DNA of 64,000 bases, from assembly GCA_021323945.1 (NCBI GenBank), contig JAJPKA010000018.1:162853-226852 (forward strand), in the 5' to 3' direction. Every line of letters begins with the position of its first letter. The stretch's first letter is position 1. The notes beneath the pieces were generated by a model, which worked only from the letters and a program-made list of their open reading frames with translations, was not told the DNA's origin and searched no databases. The stretch comes from Pseudomonadota bacterium. Lineage in GTDB: Bacteria; Desulfobacterota; Binatia; Binatales; Binataceae. The position numbers were made by a program, and so were the translations under genes. Positions 9,136 through 56,296 of this stretch are shown here, in pieces.

Positions 9136-10359
9136 ATGAGGTTCCCGACAACCACTCTGCCATTTTCCCTAGGGTCGCTTATTTTGGCGCTGGTGGTGTG
9201 CAGCTGGGGTTGCGTCAAACCGTCGCCGTATCGAATCGCGGAGCGCTATATCGAGAATCTGCGGCAATATAAATACGCGCAATGTTATGCTCTCCTTTCG
9301 GCAAAGGACCGAGAGCAGCGACCCTTGTATCAATTCCTCACTGAGATTCCACTGGCGCCGGAAGTCAGTCCGATTTGGTTTCGCCCGATTTTGCGTGCCA
9401 TGCGTTTCCAACTGAGTGATGAACGTCGCAATTCGGATGGCAGTGCCTATGTAGCTGTGAGAGTGACCGCTCCCGACCTGCCCAGTTGGGAACGTTCACT
9501 CGACGCGAATGCTCGGGACAATGACTCAATAAGCCGACTAGTAGAGCGCTCGCTGGCCGCTGGCACTTACCCCACGATAACCTACGAGGACAGGATTGTC
9601 CTAATAAGGGAATATCATCATTGGCGAGTATTGGTAGGGTTCGAGGCGCGGGACAGTGTTCTCAAGAGGCATCGCCTGGCTCTGAACGATTTCTATGCCG
9701 GACGGCTCGACCAGGCCATTGCCCAATTCAGCTTACTTATTAGAAAGCTGCAGGAAATGCCCGGTACCGGCAATCTGGGAATCGCGGCGCGTTTGCGCTT
9801 GCAGGCTGCCACCTTGCAGCGGCTCAAAGCTGAAGAAAGCGCTCTCGCCGCCTACCGAACCCAGCTCAAGCTCGACCAAGTTGCCATGCGAATGGCAGCG
9901 GAGCGCGTACCCGCAATCTTTGGGACCATTACAAATGGAGGCAATAGGCCAATCGATGAGCTTAGACTGGCCGTAACTTGGTATGAGGGCCGAGGTCGCA
10001 GTCTTAGGGTAGTGCACCGAGAGGAGCACGCGATCGTTGTGACCCCGATTCAGTTCACCGATTTCACGCGTAGGGTAACTCCGTTTTTACCCGGTGAGAA
10101 GCGTCAATTCGGTTTCATTCTGAGCGCGCCTCCCGAGGTGCAGCAGAACGCGACACCGCGTGTGAGTGTTGCCTCGCTCGCGTTTACCGAAATTCCAGCA
10201 GTGCTTCCGATGCTCGCAACGCCTGCGCCCCCGCACACGGCCGGACCCGTGAGCGATTCGGTGCGGCGTTTGCGTGCTACGCCGGCCATGACACCAGGCG
10301 ATGTATCGCTTGCCCCTGACGATCAGACCGGCAAGCTAGCACGCGGAGCCGCGCAATGA
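9136..10359 (+). CDS. Hypothetical lipoprotein (signal peptide with Cys)
   Basis: MRFPTTTLPFSLGSLILALVVCSWGC is a lipoprotein-type signal. I recognise no domain in the remaining ~380 aa. Confidence 0.5.
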   Translation: MRFPTTTLPFSLGSLILALVVCSWGCVKPSPYRIAERYIENLRQYKYAQCYALLSAKDREQRPLYQFLTEIPLAPEVSPIWFRPILRAMRFQLSDERRNSDGSAYVAVRVTAPDLPSWERSLDANARDNDSISRLVERSLAAGTYPTITYEDRIVLIREYHHWRVLVGFEARDSVLKRHRLALNDFYAGRLDQAIAQFSLLIRKLQEMPGTGNLGIAARLRLQAATLQRLKAEESALAAYRTQLKLDQVAMRMAAERVPAIFGTITNGGNRPIDELRLAVTWYEGRGRSLRVVHREEHAIVVTPIQFTDFTRRVTPFLPGEKRQFGFILSAPPEVQQNATPRVSVASLAFTEIPAVLPMLATPAPPHTAGPVSDSVRRLRATPAMTPGDVSLAPDDQTGKLARGAAQ

Positions 10360-28157: not shown

Positions 28158-29039
28158 ATGGCACGGTGGTTTGCACTTGAGGAGCCGGCTGCCCTGAAGC
28201 GAGGTCGATCCATACGTGGAGTGGAATGCCGTTGGCTTGGTTGGTGCAGGCAAGAATTTTTGGGCGTGGCAATATTGACGTTGGTCGTGGCGCCGGCCTC
28301 TGCTCTAGGATTTGAGATTAGGCAAGCCGGCAAGCTTCAGGTCTCACCGAAAGCCCAACTGTTCGCGTTTTCGACTGACCCCATAATCCAAGAGGTGTTG
28401 AGCCAGGATTTTCAAGCTGCCTCACGGAGCTCGATCGTTGGAGCGGCCTCGACCGTGACCGTTTCAGTCAACGTGACCCAACAGGTCCTGCGGCCGGGGA
28501 TTTCGCTCGCCCAAATCGCTCCCGGCGATCCCCAGGTCGCGGATCTGATAAAAGCAGCCGGAGCCAACCCGCCGCCACTGGGTGATACTGGGACCGAATA
28601 CGATCAGGCGGCTCTGGCGCGCAGATTAGCCGCCCGTGACTATATGCCCGAGAACACCATAAGTGACCGCCTGATTAATTCAAGTGCCGGTCCAGAACCT
28701 TACTTCCCTGGCATCGGTCCTCCAATTCCCCTGCCTTGCAGCGCCCAGACGGTTGCGCGACCGGGATGTCCACCGGTGCCGCAAAGCACCGTATCAGCCA
28801 CAACGACCCCCGGTCGCTCAGTTGGCGACATTGACCAATATCTGGCACGCAGAAGCCACGACCGCAATTGGTTTGGGGTTCCAGACAGTAACGACTACGA
28901 TACAATTATAGTCGCGCGGGCGTCTGCAACCGGATCGGCCGAGGAGATGACCCTGGTTGCAGTGGCTCATCCTGGCGAAGACATCGTGATGACAAAGAAA
29001 AACATCGCAGAGCGAATAGCCAGTAGTGTACTCAATTAA
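28158..29039 (+). CDS. Hypothetical secreted/membrane-anchored protein
   Basis: Hydrophobic segment FLGVAILTLVVAPASALG near the N-terminus and a Pro-rich middle region. No domain recognised; start codon uncertain. Confidence 0.4.
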   Translation: MARWFALEEPAALKRGRSIRGVECRWLGWCRQEFLGVAILTLVVAPASALGFEIRQAGKLQVSPKAQLFAFSTDPIIQEVLSQDFQAASRSSIVGAASTVTVSVNVTQQVLRPGISLAQIAPGDPQVADLIKAAGANPPPLGDTGTEYDQAALARRLAARDYMPENTISDRLINSSAGPEPYFPGIGPPIPLPCSAQTVARPGCPPVPQSTVSATTTPGRSVGDIDQYLARRSHDRNWFGVPDSNDYDTIIVARASATGSAEEMTLVAVAHPGEDIVMTKKNIAERIASSVLN

Positions 29040-37578: not shown

Positions 37579-39618
37579 CTACCGCCGAGGTATGAGCGAC
37601 ACGAGACAGCTTGGGTCAAAGGCGGGGCCATAAATCCGGATGATTGTGCCGTCGCTCGGAGAGCATTCCTTGAGCCAGCGAGCAACTATTGCCATCGGCC
37701 CGAGATCGGCGCGGGCCACCGCGCTCATCCTGTAGCGTTCGAAATTTTCCACAATGAAACGAGCGATTTCTGAAGCAGCCTGAGTTGAGTCGAGCTCGCG
37801 AATCAAGGCGAGCCTCCCGCTCAGCACGACATAGGCAATCGGAAAACAATCACCGAAGCGCCCGTCGATTTGGCCGGCTGTGTGGTGTGCATCGCTTGCC
37901 GGTGAACTCTGGTCGCCTAGTACGATAACCAGGTTGTTTTCGGTCACGACTCGGCTGAGCCTCTCAGTTCGGTGCGCTAAGGTAGTTAACAATCGCAGGT
38001 TCTGATGATGGCGACGAGCTTCCTCAAAGCGCATCGCCGCTGCAGCTCGCTCGCGCGCACGGACGAGTTGCGCAAGCAGTGGGGCGCTATGTCCGCGCAA
38101 AAAGCCGATGGCGCGCATTATTTGCCGACCATAAGCTTCCTGACTCACGGTTAGATTGCACGGTGCGGCACACTGCCCAATCTGGCCATAAATACACGGC
38201 GAGAAATCCGGGTGCGGTTCTAGCCGGCTGGCGCATTGGCGCAGCCCCAGTATCTTGGAAAGAGTTCGCAATGAATTCTCGATACTTCGTCGGCCGATGA
38301 AGGGACCCAGCTGAAGCACCCCGACTCGCGAGGTGAGGTTCCGCGCTGCCTGTAAACGCGGGAATTGGTCATTCAAATCGATCCGAACAAACCATGCCGG
38401 TGCGGCTGATTTGAGCATCCGATTGTAAGGTGGCTTCAATTCTCGAATCAGTTGGGCTTCCAGGAGTGCTGCTTCAAGTGCCGAGCGGGTGAGCCGCGTC
38501 TCGATTTGCCAAACGTGATTGACCAGCTCGGCCGTTTTGCCCTTCCGGTGAACATCATTGGTGAAATAGGCCCGGAGGCGGTCTTTAAGGTGAGCGGCTT
38601 TACCGACATAGAGCAGATCACCCTGCTGATTGCGCATCAGGTAAACGCCCGGTCCATCAGGCATCCGCGCTATCGTTTCGGGCGGGATATGTGGTTCGAT
38701 GCGGCGACCGCAGATTCCACGCGAATGCTGGTCGAGCAGGCGGTCGAGCCGATTTACACCCATCTGCTCTGCGATTTCCAGGAAGATAGATAACAGCTCC
38801 GCCGCCATGCGCGCGTCGCCGAGGCCGCGATGACGCCCAGCGGTCGAAAGACCAAAGTGTTCTGCCAAAAAGTCGAGCCGCCGACGCCGAATTGAGGGCA
38901 GCAGGCGACGTGACATGCGCAGCGTACACAGTACCGGATTCAGCAGACCGATTCCGAACAGTCGCCTGAACTCAAAGTCGAGAAAGGCATGATCGAATTG
39001 AGCGTTGTGGGCGACGAGTACGGCATCGCCCAGAAAACTGCGAAAGCGAGGCAACACGTCCTCGATCGGTGGCGCAGTTGCGACCATTTCATTGGTGATG
39101 GAAGTCAGGCGGGTCACGAACCGAGGAATTGGCATGCGTGGCTTAATCAGGCTCTGAAACGCGTCGAGCATTCGCCGCCCATGCATGCGGTAGGCGCCGA
39201 TCTCAATAATTGCTCCCGCAGCCGGACGGCTAGCGGCGGTTTCCAGGTCAACAACGACAAAATGTGCCTCGTCCAGTGCAACCCGCAACCTCGCGTTTCC
39301 GTTCAGCGACCACAAGCCCGAGTGTGCATCAAATACGAAGTTCGGATCATTTTTCAGGATTCCGTCGATGACTCGTGAGCCGAGCTCCGGATCTGATCCG
39401 ACGCCATTGGAGAGTACGGCAACCAGCTCATGAGCATGCGCGCCGGCCGGGTGGGCGCTTAAATATGCATAAAGCTTCTCCTTGGCCGTGTGCGAGGCCA
39501 GACGTTGCGGCCAAGCTGAGCTGACTCCTTCGCGGCGCGCTTCTCTGACGGAGTTAGACGGCAGGTCAGACGAATCCCCGATCAGCAGGGGACTTGAATT
39601 GGCGTCACGAGCATCCAT
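37579..39618 (-). CDS. DnaQ-like 3'-5' exonuclease fused to GIY-YIG/UvrC-homology nuclease (Cho-like excinuclease homolog)
   Basis: DEDDh exonuclease motifs HFVVVDLETA...VAHNAQFDHAFL. Then GIY-YIG: GVYLMRNQQGDLLYVGKAAHLKDRLRAYF, with UvrC-like downstream region. Confidence 0.7.
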   Translation of the reverse strand: MDARDANSSPLLIGDSSDLPSNSVREARREGVSSAWPQRLASHTAKEKLYAYLSAHPAGAHAHELVAVLSNGVGSDPELGSRVIDGILKNDPNFVFDAHSGLWSLNGNARLRVALDEAHFVVVDLETAASRPAAGAIIEIGAYRMHGRRMLDAFQSLIKPRMPIPRFVTRLTSITNEMVATAPPIEDVLPRFRSFLGDAVLVAHNAQFDHAFLDFEFRRLFGIGLLNPVLCTLRMSRRLLPSIRRRRLDFLAEHFGLSTAGRHRGLGDARMAAELLSIFLEIAEQMGVNRLDRLLDQHSRGICGRRIEPHIPPETIARMPDGPGVYLMRNQQGDLLYVGKAAHLKDRLRAYFTNDVHRKGKTAELVNHVWQIETRLTRSALEAALLEAQLIRELKPPYNRMLKSAAPAWFVRIDLNDQFPRLQAARNLTSRVGVLQLGPFIGRRSIENSLRTLSKILGLRQCASRLEPHPDFSPCIYGQIGQCAAPCNLTVSQEAYGRQIMRAIGFLRGHSAPLLAQLVRARERAAAAMRFEEARRHHQNLRLLTTLAHRTERLSRVVTENNLVIVLGDQSSPASDAHHTAGQIDGRFGDCFPIAYVVLSGRLALIRELDSTQAASEIARFIVENFERYRMSAVARADLGPMAIVARWLKECSPSDGTIIRIYGPAFDPSCLVSLIPRR

Positions 39619-41342: not shown

Positions 41343-42779
41343 ATGACCAGTAGCTCATACGAAGCCGTCATCGGTCTCGAAGTCCATACTCACCTGATGA
41401 CCCGCTCGAAGCTGTTCTGCGGGTGCTCGGCCAGCTTCGGCAGCGGACCCAACGAAAATGTATGCCCGGTGTGCCTGGGGATGCCGGGAGTACTACCGGT
41501 GCTAAATCAGTACGCAGTCGAATTGGCATTGCGGGTGGCCCTGGCTACCCATTCTGAAGTGCAAACCCGATCCGTGTTTGCGCGCAAAAGCTACTTCTAC
41601 CCTGATTTGCCGAAGGGTTATCAAATCAGTCAGTACGAGCTGCCGTTGTGCAAGGGTGGGTATATCGAGATTGCCAATGGCGGTGAGTCGCGGCGAATCC
41701 GTCTAGTCCGCATCCATATGGAAGAGGACGCCGGCAAGAATCTCCATGAGGCAAATTATAGCCTGGTTGATTTCAACCGTTCGGGCGTCCCACTGGTCGA
41801 AATTGTCAGTGAGCCCGACATCCGCTCGGCGGCTGAGGCAGGTGCCTACCTACGGGAATTGCGTGCCATCCTACGTTACGTGGGGGCCTCCGAGGGACGG
41901 ATGGAGGAAGGTGATTTCCGTTGCGACGTAAACGTCTCAGTTCGACGTAAAGGATCGGACGAACTAGGAACCAAGACGGAAATCAAGAACCTGAATTCTT
42001 TCCGCTTCGTTGAAAAGGCTATTACCTACGAGATTGGCCGCCAGATCGAGCTTTTGGAGGCCGGAGGCCGTGTGACCCAGGAGACCCGACTTTGGGACCC
42101 CAATCGCGAGGAGACGCGGCCGATGCGCTCAAAGGAGTTCGCCCACGACTATCGGTACTTCCCCGAACCTGATCTGCCGCCCCTTGAGATTGACGGCCAG
42201 ATGCTTGAGCGCGTACGGGCTGCAATGCCTGAATTACCCGCTGAGCGCCGGCGACGATTTCAGCGCGATCTAGGACTGGGCGCATACGAGACGGCGATCC
42301 TTACCGAGGATCGAGCAATTGCCGATTATTTCGAGGCGCTGCTCAATGGCGGTGTAATCGGCTCCAAGACTGCCGCCAATTGGACCATGACCGAGGTCCT
42401 GCGCATTGTCAACGAAACGGGCAAACCGCTTGAGGAAGCGGTCCCGCCGGCAGCTGAAACCCGGATCCTTCTAAAAATGGTCCAGGACGGCGTAGTTAGT
42501 CTTAATGCTGCCAAAAACGCTTTCTCCGTCATGTGTAAGTCAGGGCAACCCGCGGCGGCCGTCGTGGCCAGGCTAGGACTCGCTCAGGTTTCTGACGAGG
42601 CCGCAATTGCAGCGGCCTGCGATGAGGTAATCGCAGCGGAATCTGCCAAGGTGGCGGAGTATCGTGCAGGCCGTGACAAACTATTCGGCTTTTTCGTCGG
42701 TCAAGTGATGAAAGCCATGGGTGGTAAAGCAAACCCCAAGGTGGTTAATGAGATACTGCGCCAACGACTCCAATCTTAA
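41343..42779 (+). CDS. gatB: Aspartyl/glutamyl-tRNA(Asn/Gln) amidotransferase subunit B
   Basis: YEAVIGLEVHTHL...LFCGCS...CPVCLGMPGVLP N-terminus and the C-terminal YqeY-like domain. Confidence 0.9.
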   Translation: MTSSSYEAVIGLEVHTHLMTRSKLFCGCSASFGSGPNENVCPVCLGMPGVLPVLNQYAVELALRVALATHSEVQTRSVFARKSYFYPDLPKGYQISQYELPLCKGGYIEIANGGESRRIRLVRIHMEEDAGKNLHEANYSLVDFNRSGVPLVEIVSEPDIRSAAEAGAYLRELRAILRYVGASEGRMEEGDFRCDVNVSVRRKGSDELGTKTEIKNLNSFRFVEKAITYEIGRQIELLEAGGRVTQETRLWDPNREETRPMRSKEFAHDYRYFPEPDLPPLEIDGQMLERVRAAMPELPAERRRRFQRDLGLGAYETAILTEDRAIADYFEALLNGGVIGSKTAANWTMTEVLRIVNETGKPLEEAVPPAAETRILLKMVQDGVVSLNAAKNAFSVMCKSGQPAAAVVARLGLAQVSDEAAIAAACDEVIAAESAKVAEYRAGRDKLFGFFVGQVMKAMGGKANPKVVNEILRQRLQS

Positions 42780-42910
42780 AAGCACTGGCGCAGCTCTCGC
42801 GCTCCGCCAGTTGCTCTCGCGACCTTCCGCTGCTCGTTCCAAGAGTTGTCTGCCTGTGCCAGCAAGAATCGATTGCAGGCGGACGCGCTTGTTTCATACT
42901 ATGGCTTTCG

Positions 42911-44257
42911 GTGCGAAACCACGGGCGCAACTCCGTCGGGGGATCCGGAGTCGCCGTGAAGGTCTGCCGAGTGGGGACTAGCGCAGGCCTGTTCGCGACG
43001 CTCTTGCTCACCCCCCTCCAAGTCACTGCTCACCCAAGCGGCGAGTCGGTTCAAACGCCTCCCCAGGCGAGCGCAAATGCCGTCGGCATCAGTACGAGTG
43101 CGGCTCCGATTTGGATCGTCAAAATGAACGACACTGATCCGATGTATAAGCCGAACATTATACGAATCAGCGCTGGCGAAACCGTGGAATGGGAAAACGA
43201 CGGCCAGGTCAGCCATTCCGTCACTGACGATCCGGCTCGGGCCGAGAAGCCCGCCGATGCCTTGCTTCCAGCCGGTGTGAAGCCGTTCAATTCAGGCAGT
43301 GTGATGCCGGGAGGACGCTTTCGCCATACATTCTCAGAGCCAGGTCGTTACCGATATTTCTGCCTCAGTCATGAGAATGATCGGATGATAGGCGAAGTAA
43401 TAGTTGAACCGCGACCGTCGGCGCCTTCCTTCGAGCGCGTTGCTCGGCAAAGCCATCCGGTTCCGGCGGTAACGGCACCGCGGGTCTCGACGGCCGCGCC
43501 GATCCAAATCGTCAAGATGAACGATGACGATCCCATGTATCGTCCTAACGTTGTGCAAATCACTGCAGGCCAAACCGTCGAATGGGAGAATGATGGGCAG
43601 GTAAGTCATTCGGTTACTGACGATCCAGCGCGGGCCAACCAACCAGGCGACGCGTTGCTTCCCGCCGGTGTGAAGCCGTTCAATTCAGGCAGTGTGATGC
43701 CAGGCGGCCGTTTTCGTTATACGTTTATGAGGCCGGGCCGCTACCGGTATTTTTGCCTTACCCACGAAAGCGACAAGATGGTTGGAGAAGTCATCGTGAC
43801 GCCACCAGAGCAGGAACAGCTAGCTCAATCAAGCAATCGAGACGCAGCTGATGAAGGCCTCCCATCAGCGTCGCCTCCGGTCGTAGTCGGCATGTACGAT
43901 GACAAACCTATCTATCGGCCACGTTCAATTCAGATCGTGGCGGGACAGACCGTCGAGTGGAAGAACAAAGGGCAGAACGTTCACTCGGTCAGTGACGATC
44001 CGACTCAGGCGTGGGATCCTATTGATGCGATGCGCCCGGCAGGCGTTCAGCCATTTAGCTCGGGTAATATCATGCCAGGCGGCCATTTTAGTCATACCTT
44101 TATCAAGCCTGGCCGCTACCGCTATTTTTGCCCGACCGCGAAGGCTGCCGATGAAGTGGGCGAGATCGTGGTCAAGCCCAGCGATGAGGAAGCGGCATCT
44201 AGACCCAACAGCAACACTCGGTTGTCGGCTGTTAACAACCCGGCTCTTGCAGAGTAG
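42911..44257 (+). CDS. Secreted protein with three tandem cupredoxin (type-1 blue copper) domains
   Basis: Signal peptide. Three repeats: IVKMND.DPMY.PN...AG.TVEW.N.GQ..HSVTDDP...PFNSGSVMPGGRF...PGRYRYFC. Domains 1 and 2 carry H...C-x2-H-x4-M ligands (CLSHENDRM, CLTHESDKM). Domain 3 has CPTAKAADEV with no His/Met. Start codon uncertain; GTG 42955 has GGAG upstream. Confidence 0.7.
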   Translation: MRNHGRNSVGGSGVAVKVCRVGTSAGLFATLLLTPLQVTAHPSGESVQTPPQASANAVGISTSAAPIWIVKMNDTDPMYKPNIIRISAGETVEWENDGQVSHSVTDDPARAEKPADALLPAGVKPFNSGSVMPGGRFRHTFSEPGRYRYFCLSHENDRMIGEVIVEPRPSAPSFERVARQSHPVPAVTAPRVSTAAPIQIVKMNDDDPMYRPNVVQITAGQTVEWENDGQVSHSVTDDPARANQPGDALLPAGVKPFNSGSVMPGGRFRYTFMRPGRYRYFCLTHESDKMVGEVIVTPPEQEQLAQSSNRDAADEGLPSASPPVVVGMYDDKPIYRPRSIQIVAGQTVEWKNKGQNVHSVSDDPTQAWDPIDAMRPAGVQPFSSGNIMPGGHFSHTFIKPGRYRYFCPTAKAADEVGEIVVKPSDEEAASRPNSNTRLSAVNNPALAE

Positions 44258-44350
44258 TTGCAGCCACGGCGGCCGGCTGTGTTTTCACTCGAGTTGCGGG
44301 GAACGCAAAGCGCGGGCAGCCACGTTTGATCGATCCTCCTTCTCGGGTCA

Positions 44351-45487
44351 TTGTTTGTGACCAGCGTTTTCAGAGCCTTTCGAGCGTTAAGTAGCAGGCC
44401 AAGGACTCCGTTGGAATGGCCGATCACTGTGCGCCCGTGGGTCCGACCGCGACGCGTTGTGGTGAAGGAAGTCAACTGGCTGGGAGACCTCGTTATGAGC
44501 TTACCAGCCCTGCGCATCCTTCGTAGCACCTTTAAAGCGGCAAACCTGTCGGTAGTGGTTCGTCAGGACTTGGCCGGCTTTTTCGATGGCCTCAACTGGA
44601 TCGATGAGGTGATTACCTACTCGGTACGGCCCGGGATATGGAGTCTGATCGACCAACAGAGAATTATCGCTGCCCTTCGCGTGCGGCGCTTCGATTTGGC
44701 CGTCATCTTCCCAAATAGTTTCAGGTCAGCCTTGTGGATGAAGCTTGCGGGAGTCCGGTACCGAGCTGGCTATGCCACCGACGGAAGAGGTCTTCTGCTC
44801 ACGCACCGTGCCATTCCAAGGCCGACGTCGAGGGAGATCCATCAAAGATTCTATTGGATTCAGCTACTGCACGACGCCCTGGGAATTCCGGCGCCGAGAA
44901 CTGATCCATCGGGCGAAAAGTTGGAGGTCTCGCCCTCAAGTATACGTCGGATGCGACAATTTTTGGAGGAACGCCGAAGAGCTACGGGGCCGCTCATAGC
45001 CTTGGCACCAACGGCTGCCTATGGTCCGGCCAAGGAATGGCCCGCACACTATTATGCTGAACTCATAGACCTGCTGGCGTCGTCAGTCGGTGCTGAGTGC
45101 GTACTGCTGGGGACTGCCGCCGATCGGTCGAGGTGCGAACAAGTGGCAGTGATGAGCCGGTCAGAGGCGATTGTGGCTGCCGGCGAGACCGGCGTGGCCG
45201 AACTAAAAGCCTTGCTGTATCTTTGCGATGGGTTTGCAGGCAATGATTCTGGCGCGATGCATCTGGCGGCAGCGATCGGCATACCCTCGATCGGAATTTT
45301 CGGTTCGACCAATCCCCGACGCACCGGGCCTTTCGGGGAGCGGACGAGCGTCATCCATCACCCGATCTCATGCAGCCCCTGTCTGAGGCGAACCTGTCGT
45401 TTTAATCACTATCAGTGTCTGCGCGGGGTTGAGCCGAGTGAGGTCGCCCGGGCGCTCATTGAGATTGGTGGCTTTGCCACCAGCTAA
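44351..45487 (+). CDS. Glycosyltransferase family 9 (ADP-heptose:LPS heptosyltransferase, WaaF/RfaF-like)
   Basis: VKEVNWLGDLVMSLPALRIL N-terminus, DxxAIFPNSFRSAL, and the C-terminal NDSGAMHLAAAIGIPSIGIFGST motif are GT9 hallmarks. The true start is probably a non-ATG codon downstream of 44351. Confidence 0.8.
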   Translation: MFVTSVFRAFRALSSRPRTPLEWPITVRPWVRPRRVVVKEVNWLGDLVMSLPALRILRSTFKAANLSVVVRQDLAGFFDGLNWIDEVITYSVRPGIWSLIDQQRIIAALRVRRFDLAVIFPNSFRSALWMKLAGVRYRAGYATDGRGLLLTHRAIPRPTSREIHQRFYWIQLLHDALGIPAPRTDPSGEKLEVSPSSIRRMRQFLEERRRATGPLIALAPTAAYGPAKEWPAHYYAELIDLLASSVGAECVLLGTAADRSRCEQVAVMSRSEAIVAAGETGVAELKALLYLCDGFAGNDSGAMHLAAAIGIPSIGIFGSTNPRRTGPFGERTSVIHHPISCSPCLRRTCRFNHYQCLRGVEPSEVARALIEIGGFATS

Positions 45488-47027: not shown

Positions 47028-48653
47028 ATGACGACCGAGGGCAATGGTGCGCGTCTGCGTTTGCTTTACGATTTGGGGTGTGCAATCACGTCGCGTATCG
47101 AATTGGATGAACTATTGCCATTTGTCATCGGCAAGTGCCGCGAAGCGCTGTCGGCCGGCGGTGCTGCCGTATTGCTATTGGACCGTGAGACTAACGAGTT
47201 CTATTTTCCCTATGTTGCGGAAAGTGATTCGGAGACCGCGCGACGACTTTCAGGTCATCGATTTTCTGCAAGTCTCGGGTTTGCCGGCTTGGCGCTGAGG
47301 ACTGGTAAATCATTAAAAATCGATCACGTCCAAAATGATCCCCGTCACTACACTGGAACGGATAAGGCTACTGGATTGGCAACCCGCAACCTTATCGCCG
47401 TTCCACTCAACTCGCTTCAGGGCCCAATCGGGGTCATTGAAGTAGTCAATCGCCTGGATGGGCAGGCATTCTCCGAAGACGACGTACATTTTCTAGAAGC
47501 TCTGTCCGGATCTATTGCCATCGCGTTGGACAACGCTCGCTTATATGCTGAGGCGCGCCAAGCCGAGGCACGATTGAGAACCCAGGTAGGAGCGTTAAGA
47601 CGAGATCTCGCCGTTCAGCTCCATTTCGAGGACATGATAGGCACCGGCCCGGCAATGGCTGAGGTGTTCCGCTTAATGGAAACCGCCGCGGGTTCCTCGA
47701 TTACGGTCTTGATAGAAGGCGAGACTGGCACGGGCAAAGAGCTCGTGGCGCGTGGCATCCACCGCGCAAGTGCACGCGCAGATGGGCCCTTCCTGGCGAT
47801 GAACTGCGCGGCGATGCCTGAGGCGCTAATGGAATCCGAATTGTTTGGGCATCGTCGAGGAGCCTTCACGGGCGCGATCCGAGATCAACCCGGCCTCTTT
47901 CGAGCTGCCTCAGGAGGAACCGTCTTCCTCGACGAGGTTGGTGAGATGCCGCCGCTGATGCAAGCGAAGCTTTTGCGCGTGCTTGAGCAGGGCGAAGTAG
48001 TACCGTTAGGCGAAAACTCTCCTACTAAAGTAGATGTCCGGATCGTGTCAGCGACGAATCGTCAATTGAGTGCGGAAGTGAAGGAAGGAAAATTCCGCAG
48101 CGACCTCTTCTATCGCCTTGCCGTGTTTCCAATTAAATTGCCGCCGCTGCGGGAAAGACGTGAAGATATTCCCGCTCTCGTCCAGCGTTTCGTCAAACGC
48201 GCGGCAGAGCGACAAGATAAGACCGTGACGGGTTTCGACGAGTCCGCATTGAGAATCCTCGTAACTTATGACTGGCCAGGAAATATTCGCGAGCTGCAGA
48301 ATGAAGTCGAGCGGGCCGTCGCGATCGCACGTGAGACAACTCTCCTCGGCGTCCAACACATTTCGAGTTCCATCCGGGAAGCCGTAAATTCATCCGGCAA
48401 GACGCAGCCGAGTAGACTCTCAGATTCGCGAGCTCCGGTAGGCGACTCGTATGGCGGCGTCTCCATTGCGATCAGCGAGCTCGTTCCTCCCAAGTATGCT
48501 GAGACGTTTCGAGAAGCGCGAGCCGCTTTTGAAGCACGTTTTATAGCTGATTCCTTGACCCGTTGTCATGGCAACGTCTCACGTGCTGCCAGGTTGATGG
48601 GGCTGTCGAGAGTCCAGCTTCAGCGAAAGCTAAAAGAATACGGTCTGCGTTAG
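47028..48653 (+). CDS. Sigma-54-dependent transcriptional activator with N-terminal GAF sensor domain and C-terminal Fis-type HTH
   Basis: GAF region (residues ~20-170), AAA+ sigma-54 interaction domain with Walker A GETGTGKE, the GAFTGA loop, Walker B VFLDEVGEM, and the C-terminal HTH GNVSRAARLMGLSRVQLQRKL. Confidence 0.85.
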   Translation: MTTEGNGARLRLLYDLGCAITSRIELDELLPFVIGKCREALSAGGAAVLLLDRETNEFYFPYVAESDSETARRLSGHRFSASLGFAGLALRTGKSLKIDHVQNDPRHYTGTDKATGLATRNLIAVPLNSLQGPIGVIEVVNRLDGQAFSEDDVHFLEALSGSIAIALDNARLYAEARQAEARLRTQVGALRRDLAVQLHFEDMIGTGPAMAEVFRLMETAAGSSITVLIEGETGTGKELVARGIHRASARADGPFLAMNCAAMPEALMESELFGHRRGAFTGAIRDQPGLFRAASGGTVFLDEVGEMPPLMQAKLLRVLEQGEVVPLGENSPTKVDVRIVSATNRQLSAEVKEGKFRSDLFYRLAVFPIKLPPLRERREDIPALVQRFVKRAAERQDKTVTGFDESALRILVTYDWPGNIRELQNEVERAVAIARETTLLGVQHISSSIREAVNSSGKTQPSRLSDSRAPVGDSYGGVSIAISELVPPKYAETFREARAAFEARFIADSLTRCHGNVSRAARLMGLSRVQLQRKLKEYGLR

Positions 48654-52677: not shown

Positions 52678-52750
52678 GGGCAGGTAGCTCAGTCGGTAGA
52701 GCAGAAGACTGAAAATCTTCGTGTCGGCAGTTCGATTCTGCCCCTGCCCA
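52678..52750 (+). tRNA. tRNA-Phe (anticodon GAA)
   Basis: Hand-folded cloverleaf: acceptor gggcagg/cctgccc, D-arm gctc-agtcggta-gagc, anticodon stem gaaga/tcttc with loop ctGAAaa, T-arm ggcag-ttcgatt-ctgcc, discriminator A. CCA is not encoded. Confidence 0.85.
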
Positions 52751-54347: not shown

Positions 54348-55064
54348 TTAAGAACGTTGGACCGGTCGGCGTGCCTTCTGAACTGGATGGACGTCTGCGG
54401 TCCTGCCTGGCCGTGGCAGGGCGACGCCAATCATGCAGTCGCGCGTGACGATGGCCGCCAACTGCTCTTCGGTCCAATTCTCAGTGCCTTCGGGACGCAT
54501 GGGGAGGACCATGAAGCGGCATTTCTGATTGGAATCCTCGACCCGTATCTCAACCTCAGGAGGGAGTATCAGACCGAACTCGGCGAGTACCTGGCGGGGC
54601 CAGCGGACCAGCCGCCGTCGGTAATTTGTTGTACGATACCATTCGGGCGACATCCCGAGCAGCGGGCGTGGATAACACGAACAGAGTGTGCAAACGATCA
54701 CATGATGCAGCGTTGGAGTGTCCTCGAGGACGCGCAGGTTCATATAGTCGCTGGGAGTGCCGAAGCCGGTAGGCTCAGCCCAATCGATCCCGATCTCTTT
54801 GCAGGCTTTAACCGCGTCCTCCAGTAGACGTTTTTTAAAAGCAGGATCGGTCCACGCTTTAGCAACCAACCGGGAACCTGCGGCGGGCCCAATCGACTCA
54901 GCCCATTCAGTAAATCTCCGATGGTCCTCGGCCGTAAAAAGGCCGTGCTCAATTGCAAGCTCGCGCACCGCAATTTCGAGAACCTCGAAGTCGGTTATTT
55001 CTTCCACCATCGGCGCAGCGGGATGGTCGCCCCCGCCATCCCCAGGCGAGTGTGTATGGCTCAT
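54348..55064 (-). CDS. Nitrile hydratase alpha subunit (cobalt type) / thiocyanate hydrolase gamma-like subunit
   Basis: Metal-binding motif VIVCTLCSCYPRPLLG (Co-type CTLCSC, with Thr and Tyr) and conserved flanking NHase-alpha regions. Confidence 0.85.
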   Translation of the reverse strand: MSHTHSPGDGGGDHPAAPMVEEITDFEVLEIAVRELAIEHGLFTAEDHRRFTEWAESIGPAAGSRLVAKAWTDPAFKKRLLEDAVKACKEIGIDWAEPTGFGTPSDYMNLRVLEDTPTLHHVIVCTLCSCYPRPLLGMSPEWYRTTNYRRRLVRWPRQVLAEFGLILPPEVEIRVEDSNQKCRFMVLPMRPEGTENWTEEQLAAIVTRDCMIGVALPRPGRTADVHPVQKARRPVQRS

Positions 55065-55093
55065 GATCTTACTTCCTTTCCATTTCGCTCCGG

Positions 55094-55420
55094 TCAGCTA
55101 TCGACCGGCTCAAGCCAGCGCTCGGGAGATTCGGTCTGAAGCGAGTCGTTTTCGAACGGGTATTCAGGCCAGAGATCCTTCTGCCGGAAGCGTACGATGT
55201 AGTATTGTTCCAGCCGGCCGTCCCGATTGAAGGCCTCATCTTCGGGGAGAACGTCCTGATAGGTTAATGCTGCGATTGTGCCCACTGCGCCACGGACATA
55301 CATTTGCGTGCGGCTGTAGAACAGGTTCGGCAGGTCCTTGACGCGCACGCGGTCGCCGACCTTGAAACGAGCCTCGACCGCCCTCGTACGGTTTTTTGCT
55401 GAAGGCTTATTGCTTGGCAT
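55094..55420 (-). CDS. Nitrile hydratase beta subunit, C-terminal half as separate gene (SCNase alpha-like / ToyK/L-like)
   Basis: ARFKVGDRVRVKDLP...YVRGAVGTIAALTY is the SH3-like C-terminal barrel of NHase beta. Its start overlaps the stop of the upstream gene by 14 nt. Confidence 0.75.
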   Translation of the reverse strand: MPSNKPSAKNRTRAVEARFKVGDRVRVKDLPNLFYSRTQMYVRGAVGTIAALTYQDVLPEDEAFNRDGRLEQYYIVRFRQKDLWPEYPFENDSLQTESPERWLEPVDS

Positions 55421-55833
55421 AGCGGGCTTTCACCTCGGCGATCTTTTCGATCAGTTCCGTCAATGACACATGGTTTTTATCCACGAGCATTCGAGCTGCC
55501 GCCAAAATCCATCGCCCGTAATAGGGGATGCCGAGATAGAGCGTATAGCCCAGATCATTGTCGGCGCGCCGACGCCTTTCCTCCGAGTTCCAGATACCTC
55601 TCCAGCCAAGAACTTCGCACGTAACATACGTGTTCAGTTCCCATTGCTCCTCCTCCTTTTCTTCATAGACCCCGGGCGCGTCGAATTGGCCGCCAACATC
55701 ATGGGGTGGATGCAAGTAAGCCTTGAAAAGGGCGCTGTCCACCTCATAATTCCAGTTCTGCGGCAGATGAAGCGCGGGCTGGATGGCGCCGATAAGTTCC
55801 AGCTGCTGGCGAAGCTCGTCTCGCACGGCCACT
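55407..55833 (-). CDS. Nitrile hydratase beta subunit, N-terminal half as separate gene (SCNase beta-like)
   Basis: Contains the PPHDVGG motif and helical N-half of NHase beta. Start placed at GTG 55833 (VAVRDELRQ...) with GAGGAGG SD about 9 nt upstream. The annotated 248-aa ORF's first ~105 aa look non-coding. Confidence 0.6.
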
Positions 55834-56296
55834 TTATGGAGCCTCCTCTTCCTCTCCGGCTGAGATTGACGGTTTAATACCGTATTCGACGTTTTTACGT
55901 CAAAATCATCTCTTCTCGCAATATCCGATTGTCGCGAGATTTTCCTGACTACAGGAGGGTTCGACTCGATATTGTTCGTGGCTCGAACGAAGCAGATACA
56001 AGTGGTGCTAAGTGGCCGAAGCAGTAGTTTTGGGGAAAAGGTTCTGTTCTGCGATTGTACGTTCGCAAATCGCAGTCTGGTTGGTCTTTGACCGGCGGAG
56101 AACGCTGCACGACCCCCGCAAAAACAGCGGCCCGAAAATCGCATAGACGCCATATAGGCGTGGATACTTGGCCGACGCCGTGAGCTCCAACGGTTGCGCG
56201 GGACCGGCGCAGCTTGGAGACGCGTATTAGGGTCGAAATATGCGGTTAAGCTGGTAGTCCGCTTACCGCATTACCGATTAGGGTCCCCAGTGCGCC

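Follow-up and report, generated by a model that had tools for sequence, protein, structure and literature searches.

Which task could a bacterial protein fulfill that carries three blue-copper modules in a row, the last of them with an incomplete metal site, and how could such a chain have arisen? This question is raised by a gene on the plus strand, at positions 42911-44257, of a 64,000-nt stretch of DNA (in the following, the window) from an uncultured soil bacterium, a member of Candidatus Binataceae. The listed open reading frame (ORF) begins with a GTG at 42911 and encodes 448 aa plus stop; its product is here called tri-cupredoxin. It is proposed, with a probability of about 0.6, that this is a Sec-exported periplasmic type-1 copper electron-transfer protein, built like beads on a string and encoded at a locus of variable domain copy number. 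Characterized blue copper carriers are single-domain proteins; at the locus behind gatB, by contrast, orthologous genes within one bacterial family encode one, two, or three domains, a natural series comprising both intact and decayed copper sites. The series suits the question of what a respiratory chain gains from extra tethered redox modules, and likewise questions of repeat evolution under gene conversion and of the passage from a metalloprotein domain to a pseudo-metal domain. The main interest lies in this evolutionary series and in a conserved element at the 5' end of the gene.

Three cupredoxin modules and their copper sites

An earlier note on this DNA, made from the sequence alone, had described three tandem cupredoxin modules and proposed to examine them with the domain profiles PF00127 and PF13473. 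Both match in three stretches of the protein (PF00127, Copper-bind: E = 2.3e-27, 95.8 bits vs a Pfam cut-off of 21.2), and the NCBIfam plastocyanin model TIGR02656 reaches 130.2 bits vs a cut-off of 87.85 when summed over the three stretches. The borders were set with a hidden Markov model made from orthologues; they delimit domains of ~103 aa each and agree with the approximate coordinates of the note. In the first domain, D1 (aa 65-167; 43103-43411), the type-1 copper ligands are H102, C151, H154, and M159, and in the second, D2 (aa 196-298; 43496-43804), they are H233, C282, H285, and M290, so that the pattern His...Cys-x2-His-x4-Met is complete in both, as had been read. The third, D3 (aa 321-423; 43871-44179), is a cupredoxin-fold domain with a degenerate metal site. 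It retains H358 and C407 and has A410 at the position of the second His and E415 at that of the Met; its loop, FCPTAKAADEV, contains the CPTAKAADEV reported before in place of the His/Met loop. The domains are joined by disordered linkers of 22-28 aa, namely linker 1 (aa 168-195; 43412-43495), in which the alignment reveals a short RVA.S motif, and linker 2 (aa 299-320; 43805-43870) with an EQLA.S motif. A flexible, poorly conserved segment rich in Pro, Ser, and Ala (aa 41-64; 43031-43102) precedes D1, and a disordered tail (aa 424-448; 44180-44254) follows D3. The ending ...LS...E-COOH of this tail is conserved: S and the final E do not vary, and L hardly does, among the 32 full-length orthologues used throughout (59-99% identity; all except the near-identical P0001 at most 72%). 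Judged by its sequence, tri-cupredoxin is a genuine blue-copper protein of three domains, two with predicted active sites and the last with a degenerate one.

Structure prediction with AlphaFold2, run with a 32-sequence alignment, yielded the cupredoxin beta-sandwich that the note had named as decisive for all three domains. The sandwiches are all-beta, with a predicted local distance difference test (pLDDT) of 72-85, and the linkers and termini stay below 50 (26-52 in linker 1, <50 in the segment before D1, ~30 in the tail). The confidence for D3 (pLDDT 67-85) is about equal to that for D1 and D2. The predicted template modeling score (pTM) of the entire chain is 0.32, and inter-domain packing is not confidently predicted; the overall model is that of beads on a string with disordered linkers. 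All 50 matches listed by Foldseek against the PDB are cupredoxin-fold proteins, among them multicopper oxidases, NirK, SufI, ceruloplasmin, and the coagulation factors V and VIII. Given that the top matches are three-domain multicopper oxidases and NirK, and that three cupredoxin domains correspond to the domain count of laccases, the chain could be regarded as a packed laccase- or NirK-like enzyme. However, the similarity extends over individual domains only (TM-scores 0.14-0.25, root-mean-square deviation ~20 A), the whole protein contains no HxH motif and hence no type-2/type-3 (T2/T3) ligands, the disordered linkers evolve fast, the pTM is low, and in other genomes the locus is occupied by one- or two-domain orthologues. 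This very improbable reading was rejected for its missing T2/T3 ligands and packed interfaces.

A census of the ligands in the orthologues found the full set (HCHM) in D1 of all 32, in D2 of 31, and in D3 of 14. The remaining D3 patterns are of 12 kinds: YCHM, which occurs six times, HCAE, shared by the window and P0001, and HCNA, HCHT, HCRM, HCRV, HCH-, YSHM, HSDM, YSNM, RGHM, and HGET. The statement that the chain includes one non-copper domain is therefore apt for D3 of the window, which is most likely copper-free, and does not describe the design of the family, 14 of whose 32 members examined keep a full D3 set. D3 is also the more divergent domain. Its mean identity between genomes is 72% vs 81-82% for D1 and D2, and its non-synonymous divergence (dN) is 0.12-0.36 over all pairs (0.18-0.25 in comparisons with the window) vs 0.07-0.15 for D1 and D2 and 0.43-0.98 for the linkers. 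Synonymous divergence (dS) was saturated (>1 or undefined), so that only dN values were compared and dN/dS was dropped. Because the dN of D3 lies between that of D1/D2 and that of the linkers, D3 is still constrained; it is under purifying selection and does not decay freely. The second domain of the orthologue L012, which was duplicated independently, also lacks the Cys and the Met. These patterns suggest that the C-terminal copper is dispensable and was lost repeatedly, the folded D3 keeping some non-redox value.

Alternatively, the third site could have been remodeled. His358 and Cys407 would then act together with Asp414/Glu415 or an exogenous ligand in a type-2-like, 'red', or open copper center, or would hold another metal, and D3 would serve in catalysis or sensing. 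The retained His and Cys, the Glu at the axial position with an Asp before it, and the purifying selection on D3 all accord with this idea, and the YCHM variant of six orthologues might hint at an alternative chemistry. The replacements vary by lineage, however, and several of them dispense with the Cys itself, a pattern of decay and not of convergence; moreover, D3 evolves about twice as fast as D1 and D2. A remodeled metal site is thus considered unlikely, and a copper-free D3 is preferred for this genome.

Age of the repeats and variation at the gatB locus

Copies 1 and 2 were said to share identical DNA of 37 nt, and a recent intragenic duplication had been deduced from it. The stretch is real and measures 38 nt (43271-43308 in D1, identical to 43664-43701 in D2, both on the plus strand); it is not a sign of recent duplication, and the deduction fails on several counts. 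The identity of D1 and D2 in DNA is 74%, and that of D3 to either is 70-75%. At third codon positions, D1 and D2 are identical in a fraction of 0.47-0.48, and orthologous domains across genomes in 0.41-0.66 (most 0.41-0.56, with 0.61-0.66 only for the close pair L004/L008); since the two levels are equal, the synonymous sites of D1 and D2 must be saturated. In 30 of the 32 orthologues, D1 is closest to a D1 of another genome. A neighbor-joining tree of 14 three-domain relatives groups D1, D2, and D3 each as a monophyletic clade, with D1 as the sister of D2. As these clades are position-specific, the triplication is older than the radiation of the three-domain clade.

An exact run of 38 nt is not expected by chance (P = 3.4e-4, i.e. 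0.034% of trials, under codon-column shuffling). Because D1 and D2 are saturated and the three domains are separately monophyletic, the block is better explained by gene conversion, and a local conversion tract is its best reading. Exact runs of 30-42 nt between D1 and D2 occur at other positions in three of the five other genomes compared, and the third-position identity of D1 and D2 in L004 and L008 (0.67-0.70) exceeds that of most orthologous comparisons. In addition, P0001, located on an 8.2-kb NCBI contig and 99% identical, encodes otherwise the same protein, in which five clustered residues of D2 reproduce D3 (GGHFSHTFIK; near 43664-43690 of the window, aa 252-259 in 433-aa numbering). 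The patch may represent an allele produced by gene conversion from D3 to D2 or, alternatively, a chimera of short-read assembly. Patchy intragenic gene conversion explains the 38-nt block, the identity in L004 and L008, and the patch of P0001 alike. On this evidence, tri-cupredoxin is the product of an old expansion, specific to its lineage, of a single-domain carrier whose copies were locally kept similar by gene conversion.

The possible chimera in P0001, and with it the ability of the repeats in this gene to mislead assemblers, also touch the caveat that the repeat structure might wholly or partly be an assembly artefact arising from collapse, expansion, or chimerism. This caveat can be laid aside, as more than 30 independent assemblies contain this three-domain gene, one of the contigs being 1.4 Mb long, and copies with 70-75% identity in DNA are too divergent to be collapsed or expanded; the probability of an artefact is close to nil. 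Instead, gene conversion acting on an old triplication remains the reading followed here.

The species-representative genomes that contain the relatives are metagenome-assembled genomes (MAGs) of Candidatus Binataceae. Around the three-domain genes the order gatA-gatB-cupredoxin-GT9-lpxD is kept, and the two-domain relatives P0059 and P0064 directly follow gatCAB. Among Binataceae, this locus immediately after gatB codes for a protein with one domain in some members and with two or three in others. In the one-domain forms (~198-229 aa), a signal is followed by a Pro-rich tether, a single cupredoxin, and the conserved tail EAAR.ASQL.AQPWR. According to the domain tree, the pair L011/L030 goes back to one duplication event and L012 to another; D1 of L012 is nearly identical to the single-domain protein of L022, and its D2 is already degenerate. 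A third duplication belongs to the lineage leading to the three-domain clade, for which the two-domain L023 is a possible intermediate. The variation in domain number goes back to at least three independent internal duplications. The linkage to gatB is the only general one. A role in the lipopolysaccharide pathway, considered for the linkage to GT9 and lpxD, was discarded, this linkage not being conserved in the sampled two-domain orthologues L011 and L012.

Two relatives deserve separate mention. In L008 (CAVWAA010000028.1, a Binataceae MAG), an in-frame stop lies at ~6100 in the N-terminal tether (…EVTSA*GSESS…) and the remaining gene is intact; the stop reflects a sequencing error, or else the gene has recently become a pseudogene. 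P0076 (L013/L014, 8001-8963), a more distant relative, begins with a signal peptide and an N-terminal domain of ~100 aa, from which a long Pro-rich linker leads to the cupredoxin at the C-terminus. Its gene directly follows fabZ-lpxA-lpxI and is located beside lipid-A genes, as the window gene is located by lpxD. This adjacency is probably a coincidence, as such a linkage is missing in the two-domain orthologues sampled.

How far such chains extend beyond Binataceae was assessed by searching 1.84 billion representative proteins exhaustively with HMMER, which returned 5,159 relatives. Among the best 150 of these, dozens have 3-10 matched stretches. The poly-cupredoxins inspected include proteins with seven (P0082) or five matched repeats and Tat/lipobox N-termini, and others (P0088, P0110) that have three or four matched repeats and are anchored to the membrane by the C-terminus; in all of them the ligand sets are mostly intact and the linkers Pro-rich. 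The searchable literature yielded no experimental study of multi-cupredoxin carriers; only multicopper oxidases, NirK, and the plant dicyanin were returned. Public records label members of the family 'plastocyanin/azurin family copper-binding protein'. The architecture had been called unusual; that is right among characterized cupredoxins and goes too far in view of the many proteins with 3-10 repeats and of the Binataceae locus itself, with its one to three domains. The multi-cupredoxin architecture is uncharacterized but not rare. Specific to the cupredoxin family of this locus are the linkage to gatB, the polymorphism in domain number, the recurrent decay of the last site, and a signature at the 5' end.

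Translation start, conserved 5' element, and surrounding genes

The first 40 residues (42911-43030) resemble a signal peptide with an extended basic n-region that contains NSVGGSGV, and V-T-A precedes H41. A hydropathy scan detected the only hydrophobic segment of the protein at aa ~14-38. Cleavage-like sites are found in the orthologues, with the consensus A-A-A|NPSGE, and in the one-domain forms as ANA|K or AYA|N; in tri-cupredoxin, cleavage would occur before H41. These features are consistent with the secretion that the note had assumed.

For the translation start, two GTG codons had to be compared. The internal GTG at 42956, which has a GGAG 6 nt upstream and is chosen by most gene callers, was dropped after comparison of the one-, two-, and three-domain orthologues. 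In all three forms, the upstream GTG is placed exactly six codons before the peptide N-S-x-x-G-[SP]-G-V. L011 offers no other start in frame, the internal GTG is replaced by GTA in L005, and L004 carries an in-frame insertion of 3 nt, all of which favors 42911. This start is probably right, and database models that start 15 codons later are probably short. A promoter-like site is situated at 42873-42902 (plus strand), composed of a -35 hexamer TTGCAG (42873-42878), an 18-nt spacer, and a -10 hexamer TACTAT (42897-42902) that ends 8 nt before the GTG. In six three-domain orthologues the hexamers are conserved and the spacer is variable; one- and two-domain orthologues show TTGCGG-N17-CATATT/CATAGT, 10-11 nt before the GTG. 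A consensus promoter scan of 42600-44600 gave no match, and the hexamers are proposed as a promoter by virtue of their conservation. As the -10-like element ends 8-11 nt before the GTG, a leaderless or nearly leaderless mRNA is suggested. At the other end of the gene, 8 nt past the stop, a hairpin with a T-run (44265-44291, plus strand) resembles a terminator by consensus match only.

The region 42863-42960, with the promoter-like hexamers and the first 17 codons (~90 nt), is conserved in DNA far more strongly than the remainder of the gene. Of the 13 amino-acid-invariant codons among codons 1-17, 12 are identical in five orthologues vs 24 of 189 elsewhere (Fisher P = 2e-9). Gly is always encoded there by GGA or GGG, even though the six genes of the window that were counted use GGC most often for Gly. 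The motif AACTCCGTCGGGGGATCCGGAGT (42929-42951, plus strand), located within codons 7-14, is conserved, with a possible hairpin ACUCCG/CGGAGU. The motif AACTCCGNNNGGGGANCCGGRGT has one occurrence in the window vs 0 expected. In a metagenome scan it was found at 37 loci, 30 of them at the 5' end of a cupredoxin-family gene, and gatB lies upstream of the family members at all motif-retrieved loci with upstream sequence. Among the pairs of the hairpin, a U-A to U-G change is seen in one lineage and a G-C to A-U change in another. RNA folding of the 5' segment was no better than that of shuffled sequences (z = +0.5, -0.1, +1.2, -1.4), and Rfam gave no match for the element at the gathering threshold across the window. 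An RNA structure, an operator, a constraint on translation initiation, and a targeting peptide are all possible explanations.

Annotation of the family gains in two respects, the start codon being corrected relative to most gene callers and a spurious 'DIX domain' label being flagged. The label goes back to PF00778 (DIX, a eukaryotic domain), which scores 34.2 bits vs a cut-off of 22.2 on the strand-loop-strand GRYRYFC..H....M.GEV at 43316-43399 (aa 136-163 of the translated ORF) and on the corresponding stretch of D2, and which covers only 29 of its 77 profile positions. It is present in the precomputed Pfam column of most of the closer homologues. Almost certainly, it is a false positive that spreads into annotations.

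Several other genes of the window were recorded. Immediately upstream of gatA, in divergent orientation, a gene for 679 aa (37579-39618, minus strand) is conserved, whose syntenic orthologues combine an RNase_T-type exonuclease, GIY-YIG, and UvrC_M in a UvrC-like fusion. Between lpxD and the Band_7/NfeD genes, an ORF of 541 aa (47028-48653, plus strand) resembles, by sequence reading, a sigma-54-dependent activator (GAF-like N-terminus, AAA+, HTH). A gene of that size is not called at this position in the syntenic loci L001, L004, and L005, and the ORF is probably a lineage-specific insertion. Adjacent genes for the alpha subunit (PF02979, 3e-77) and a beta-like subunit (PF21006) of nitrile hydratase at 54348-56153 (minus strand) have no counterpart in the syntenic regions that were inspected at other loci. 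Two plus-strand ORFs, 9136-10359 (407 aa), which is situated among glycosyltransferase genes, and 28158-29039 (293 aa), have no Pfam match at E <= 1e-5. The sole Rfam match in the window is a single tRNA gene (RF00005, 72 bits) at 52678-52750 (plus strand).

Candidate function and relation to known copper proteins

In the proposed mechanism, D1 and D2 would bind one copper ion each and shuttle single electrons, and D3 would persist without copper as a folded and selected non-redox module, perhaps for docking, spacing, or solubility. A single module at the gatB locus would have been multiplied by independent internal duplications, occasional gene conversion would have evened out differences among the modules, and the C-terminal one would repeatedly have lost its copper site after duplication. 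The protein would serve as a housekeeping soluble carrier in an aerobic chain, taking electrons from alternative complex III (ACIII) or from periplasmic dehydrogenases to a terminal oxidase, and extra domains would increase the number of redox centers per polypeptide. The electron-transfer role is supported by the closest single-domain relatives outside the family, which carry the module joined to a membrane-anchored c-type cytochrome (P0069, P0071, P0078) or to a membrane domain (P0070). Genomes of the Binatota reportedly encode complexes I and II, ACIII, and complex IV, the carrier between the last two being unnamed (PMC8262859). Plastocyanin is not mentioned in that genome paper. In PMC10873879, auracyanin is described as the periplasmic acceptor of ACIII in Roseiflexus. 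By analogy with auracyanin or plastocyanin, tri-cupredoxin may be the carrier in the chain from ACIII to the oxidase; being constitutively placed beside housekeeping genes and universally retained, it is a reasonable candidate for this task or for taking up electrons from periplasmic dehydrogenases, and is nominated here as a candidate for the unnamed electron carrier of the published Binatota scheme.

Besides the retained His and Cys of D3, several points weigh against this proposal. The signal region of 40 aa is atypically long and includes a conserved motif; the link to ACIII and the oxidase is drawn from phylum-level literature and analogy; and single-domain orthologues evidently suffice in many Binataceae, which bears on any advantage of multiple domains. 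Furthermore, no redox partner is encoded in the 64-kb window or at the syntenic loci. The statement that no partner oxidoreductase is encoded next to the gene can thus be extended to the entire window. The contexts of distant relatives gave no consistent partner either, P0076 lying by lipid-A genes and P0078 by a weak cytochrome P460 match.

With no redox partner in the neighborhood, and with a number of metal sites that varies across the family, the modules could instead be copper-binding units of a periplasmic buffer, chaperone, or resistance protein similar to CopI, to whose NCBIfam model (NF051440) a weak match exists (E = 1.5e-4). This match amounts to 21.6 bits vs a cut-off of 280, however, and tri-cupredoxin contains neither His/Met-rich tracts nor the HxH motif. 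The ligand spacing of D1 and D2 is canonical for plastocyanin and invariant in the 32 orthologues, cop, cus, or P-type ATPase genes are absent from the 64-kb window, the syntenic loci encode no copper-handling enzyme either, and related domains are fused to cytochromes c. A function in copper handling is accordingly held to be quite unlikely, and electron transfer remains the favored function. A bolder version of the latter, speculative and rather unlikely as a whole, supposes that Binataceae replaced soluble cytochrome c by a blue-copper shuttle of one to three domains, whose C-terminal copy repeatedly became a copper-free docking module and whose expression is controlled by the 5' element. 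Recurrent duplication and gene conversion would tune the domain number, the element would overlap the first 17 codons of a leaderless mRNA, and the motif AACTCCG-N3-GGGGA-N-CCGGRGT might be a copper- or oxygen-responsive RNA or operator.

Among solved structures, plastocyanins gave the best sequence match. A phmmer search of PDB sequences aligned every module best with them (1pcs, E = 1e-9), and the ligands Cys, second His, and Met coincide in these alignments. Plastocyanin (PF00127, TIGR02656) and tri-cupredoxin have the single-domain fold and the type-1 ligands in common, and the spacing His...Cys-x2-His-x4-Met is identical. They differ in that tri-cupredoxin has three tandem domains on flexible linkers, requires gaps in its DDPARA..PF.SG loop, has Ser and not Asn after the first His ligand, and passes the TIGR02656 cut-off only as a sum of three domains. 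Plastocyanin proper is the b6f-to-photosystem I carrier of oxygenic phototrophs, whereas the host of tri-cupredoxin belongs to Candidatus Binataceae and has no recognized photosystem; for Binatota, no reaction center was recognized (PMC8262859). The Ser after the first His ligand is present in all 96 domains of the 32 orthologues (in the window e.g. H102-S103, 43214-43219). Rusticyanin has its Ser86 at this position, a residue that contributes to the high potential, and in amicyanin a replacement of Asn by Ser at that position raised the midpoint potential (Em) (PMC12723479). By comparison with these proteins, the Ser hints at a fairly high potential.

The scores for other small blue copper proteins stay below the NCBIfam cut-offs: amicyanin (TIGR02657) reaches 38.7 bits vs 110.2, pseudoazurin 36.2 vs 109.85, halocyanin 77.5 vs 93.8, and rusticyanin 22.3 vs 146.7. 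The gene neighbors are gatAB, GT9, and lpxD and not a mau cluster, as would be found with amicyanin. Auracyanin of Chloroflexus and Roseiflexus, the blue copper acceptor for ACIII in the periplasm, is the proposed functional analogue; it is single-domain and membrane-tethered, unlike tri-cupredoxin, and azurin-like in sequence. Specific similarity to auracyanin was not seen in any of the searches made with tri-cupredoxin. The metagenomic poly-cupredoxins (P0082, P0088, P0110) are likewise tandem arrays of the same plastocyanin-like module, but they are anchored differently, may have many more repeats, are only 31-38% identical to tri-cupredoxin, and have neither the linkage to gatB nor the N-terminal signature NSxxGxGV.

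Several cupredoxin domains per chain are also found in the top structural matches, such as the redox-partner-tethered copper nitrite reductase HdNIR (2dv6/6tfo), the multicopper oxidase of N. maritimus (9cck), and laccases. In these enzymes the domains are tightly packed, with T2 or T2/T3 copper at the interfaces, whereas tri-cupredoxin has no such ligands. For copper-free cupredoxin domains with a non-redox role, as proposed for D3, a precedent exists in SufI/FtsP (2uxt/2uxv), which is also among the structural matches. SufI, a cell-division protein of three compactly arranged domains, lacks copper sites altogether, whereas in tri-cupredoxin the degeneration concerns D3 and is confined to some lineages.

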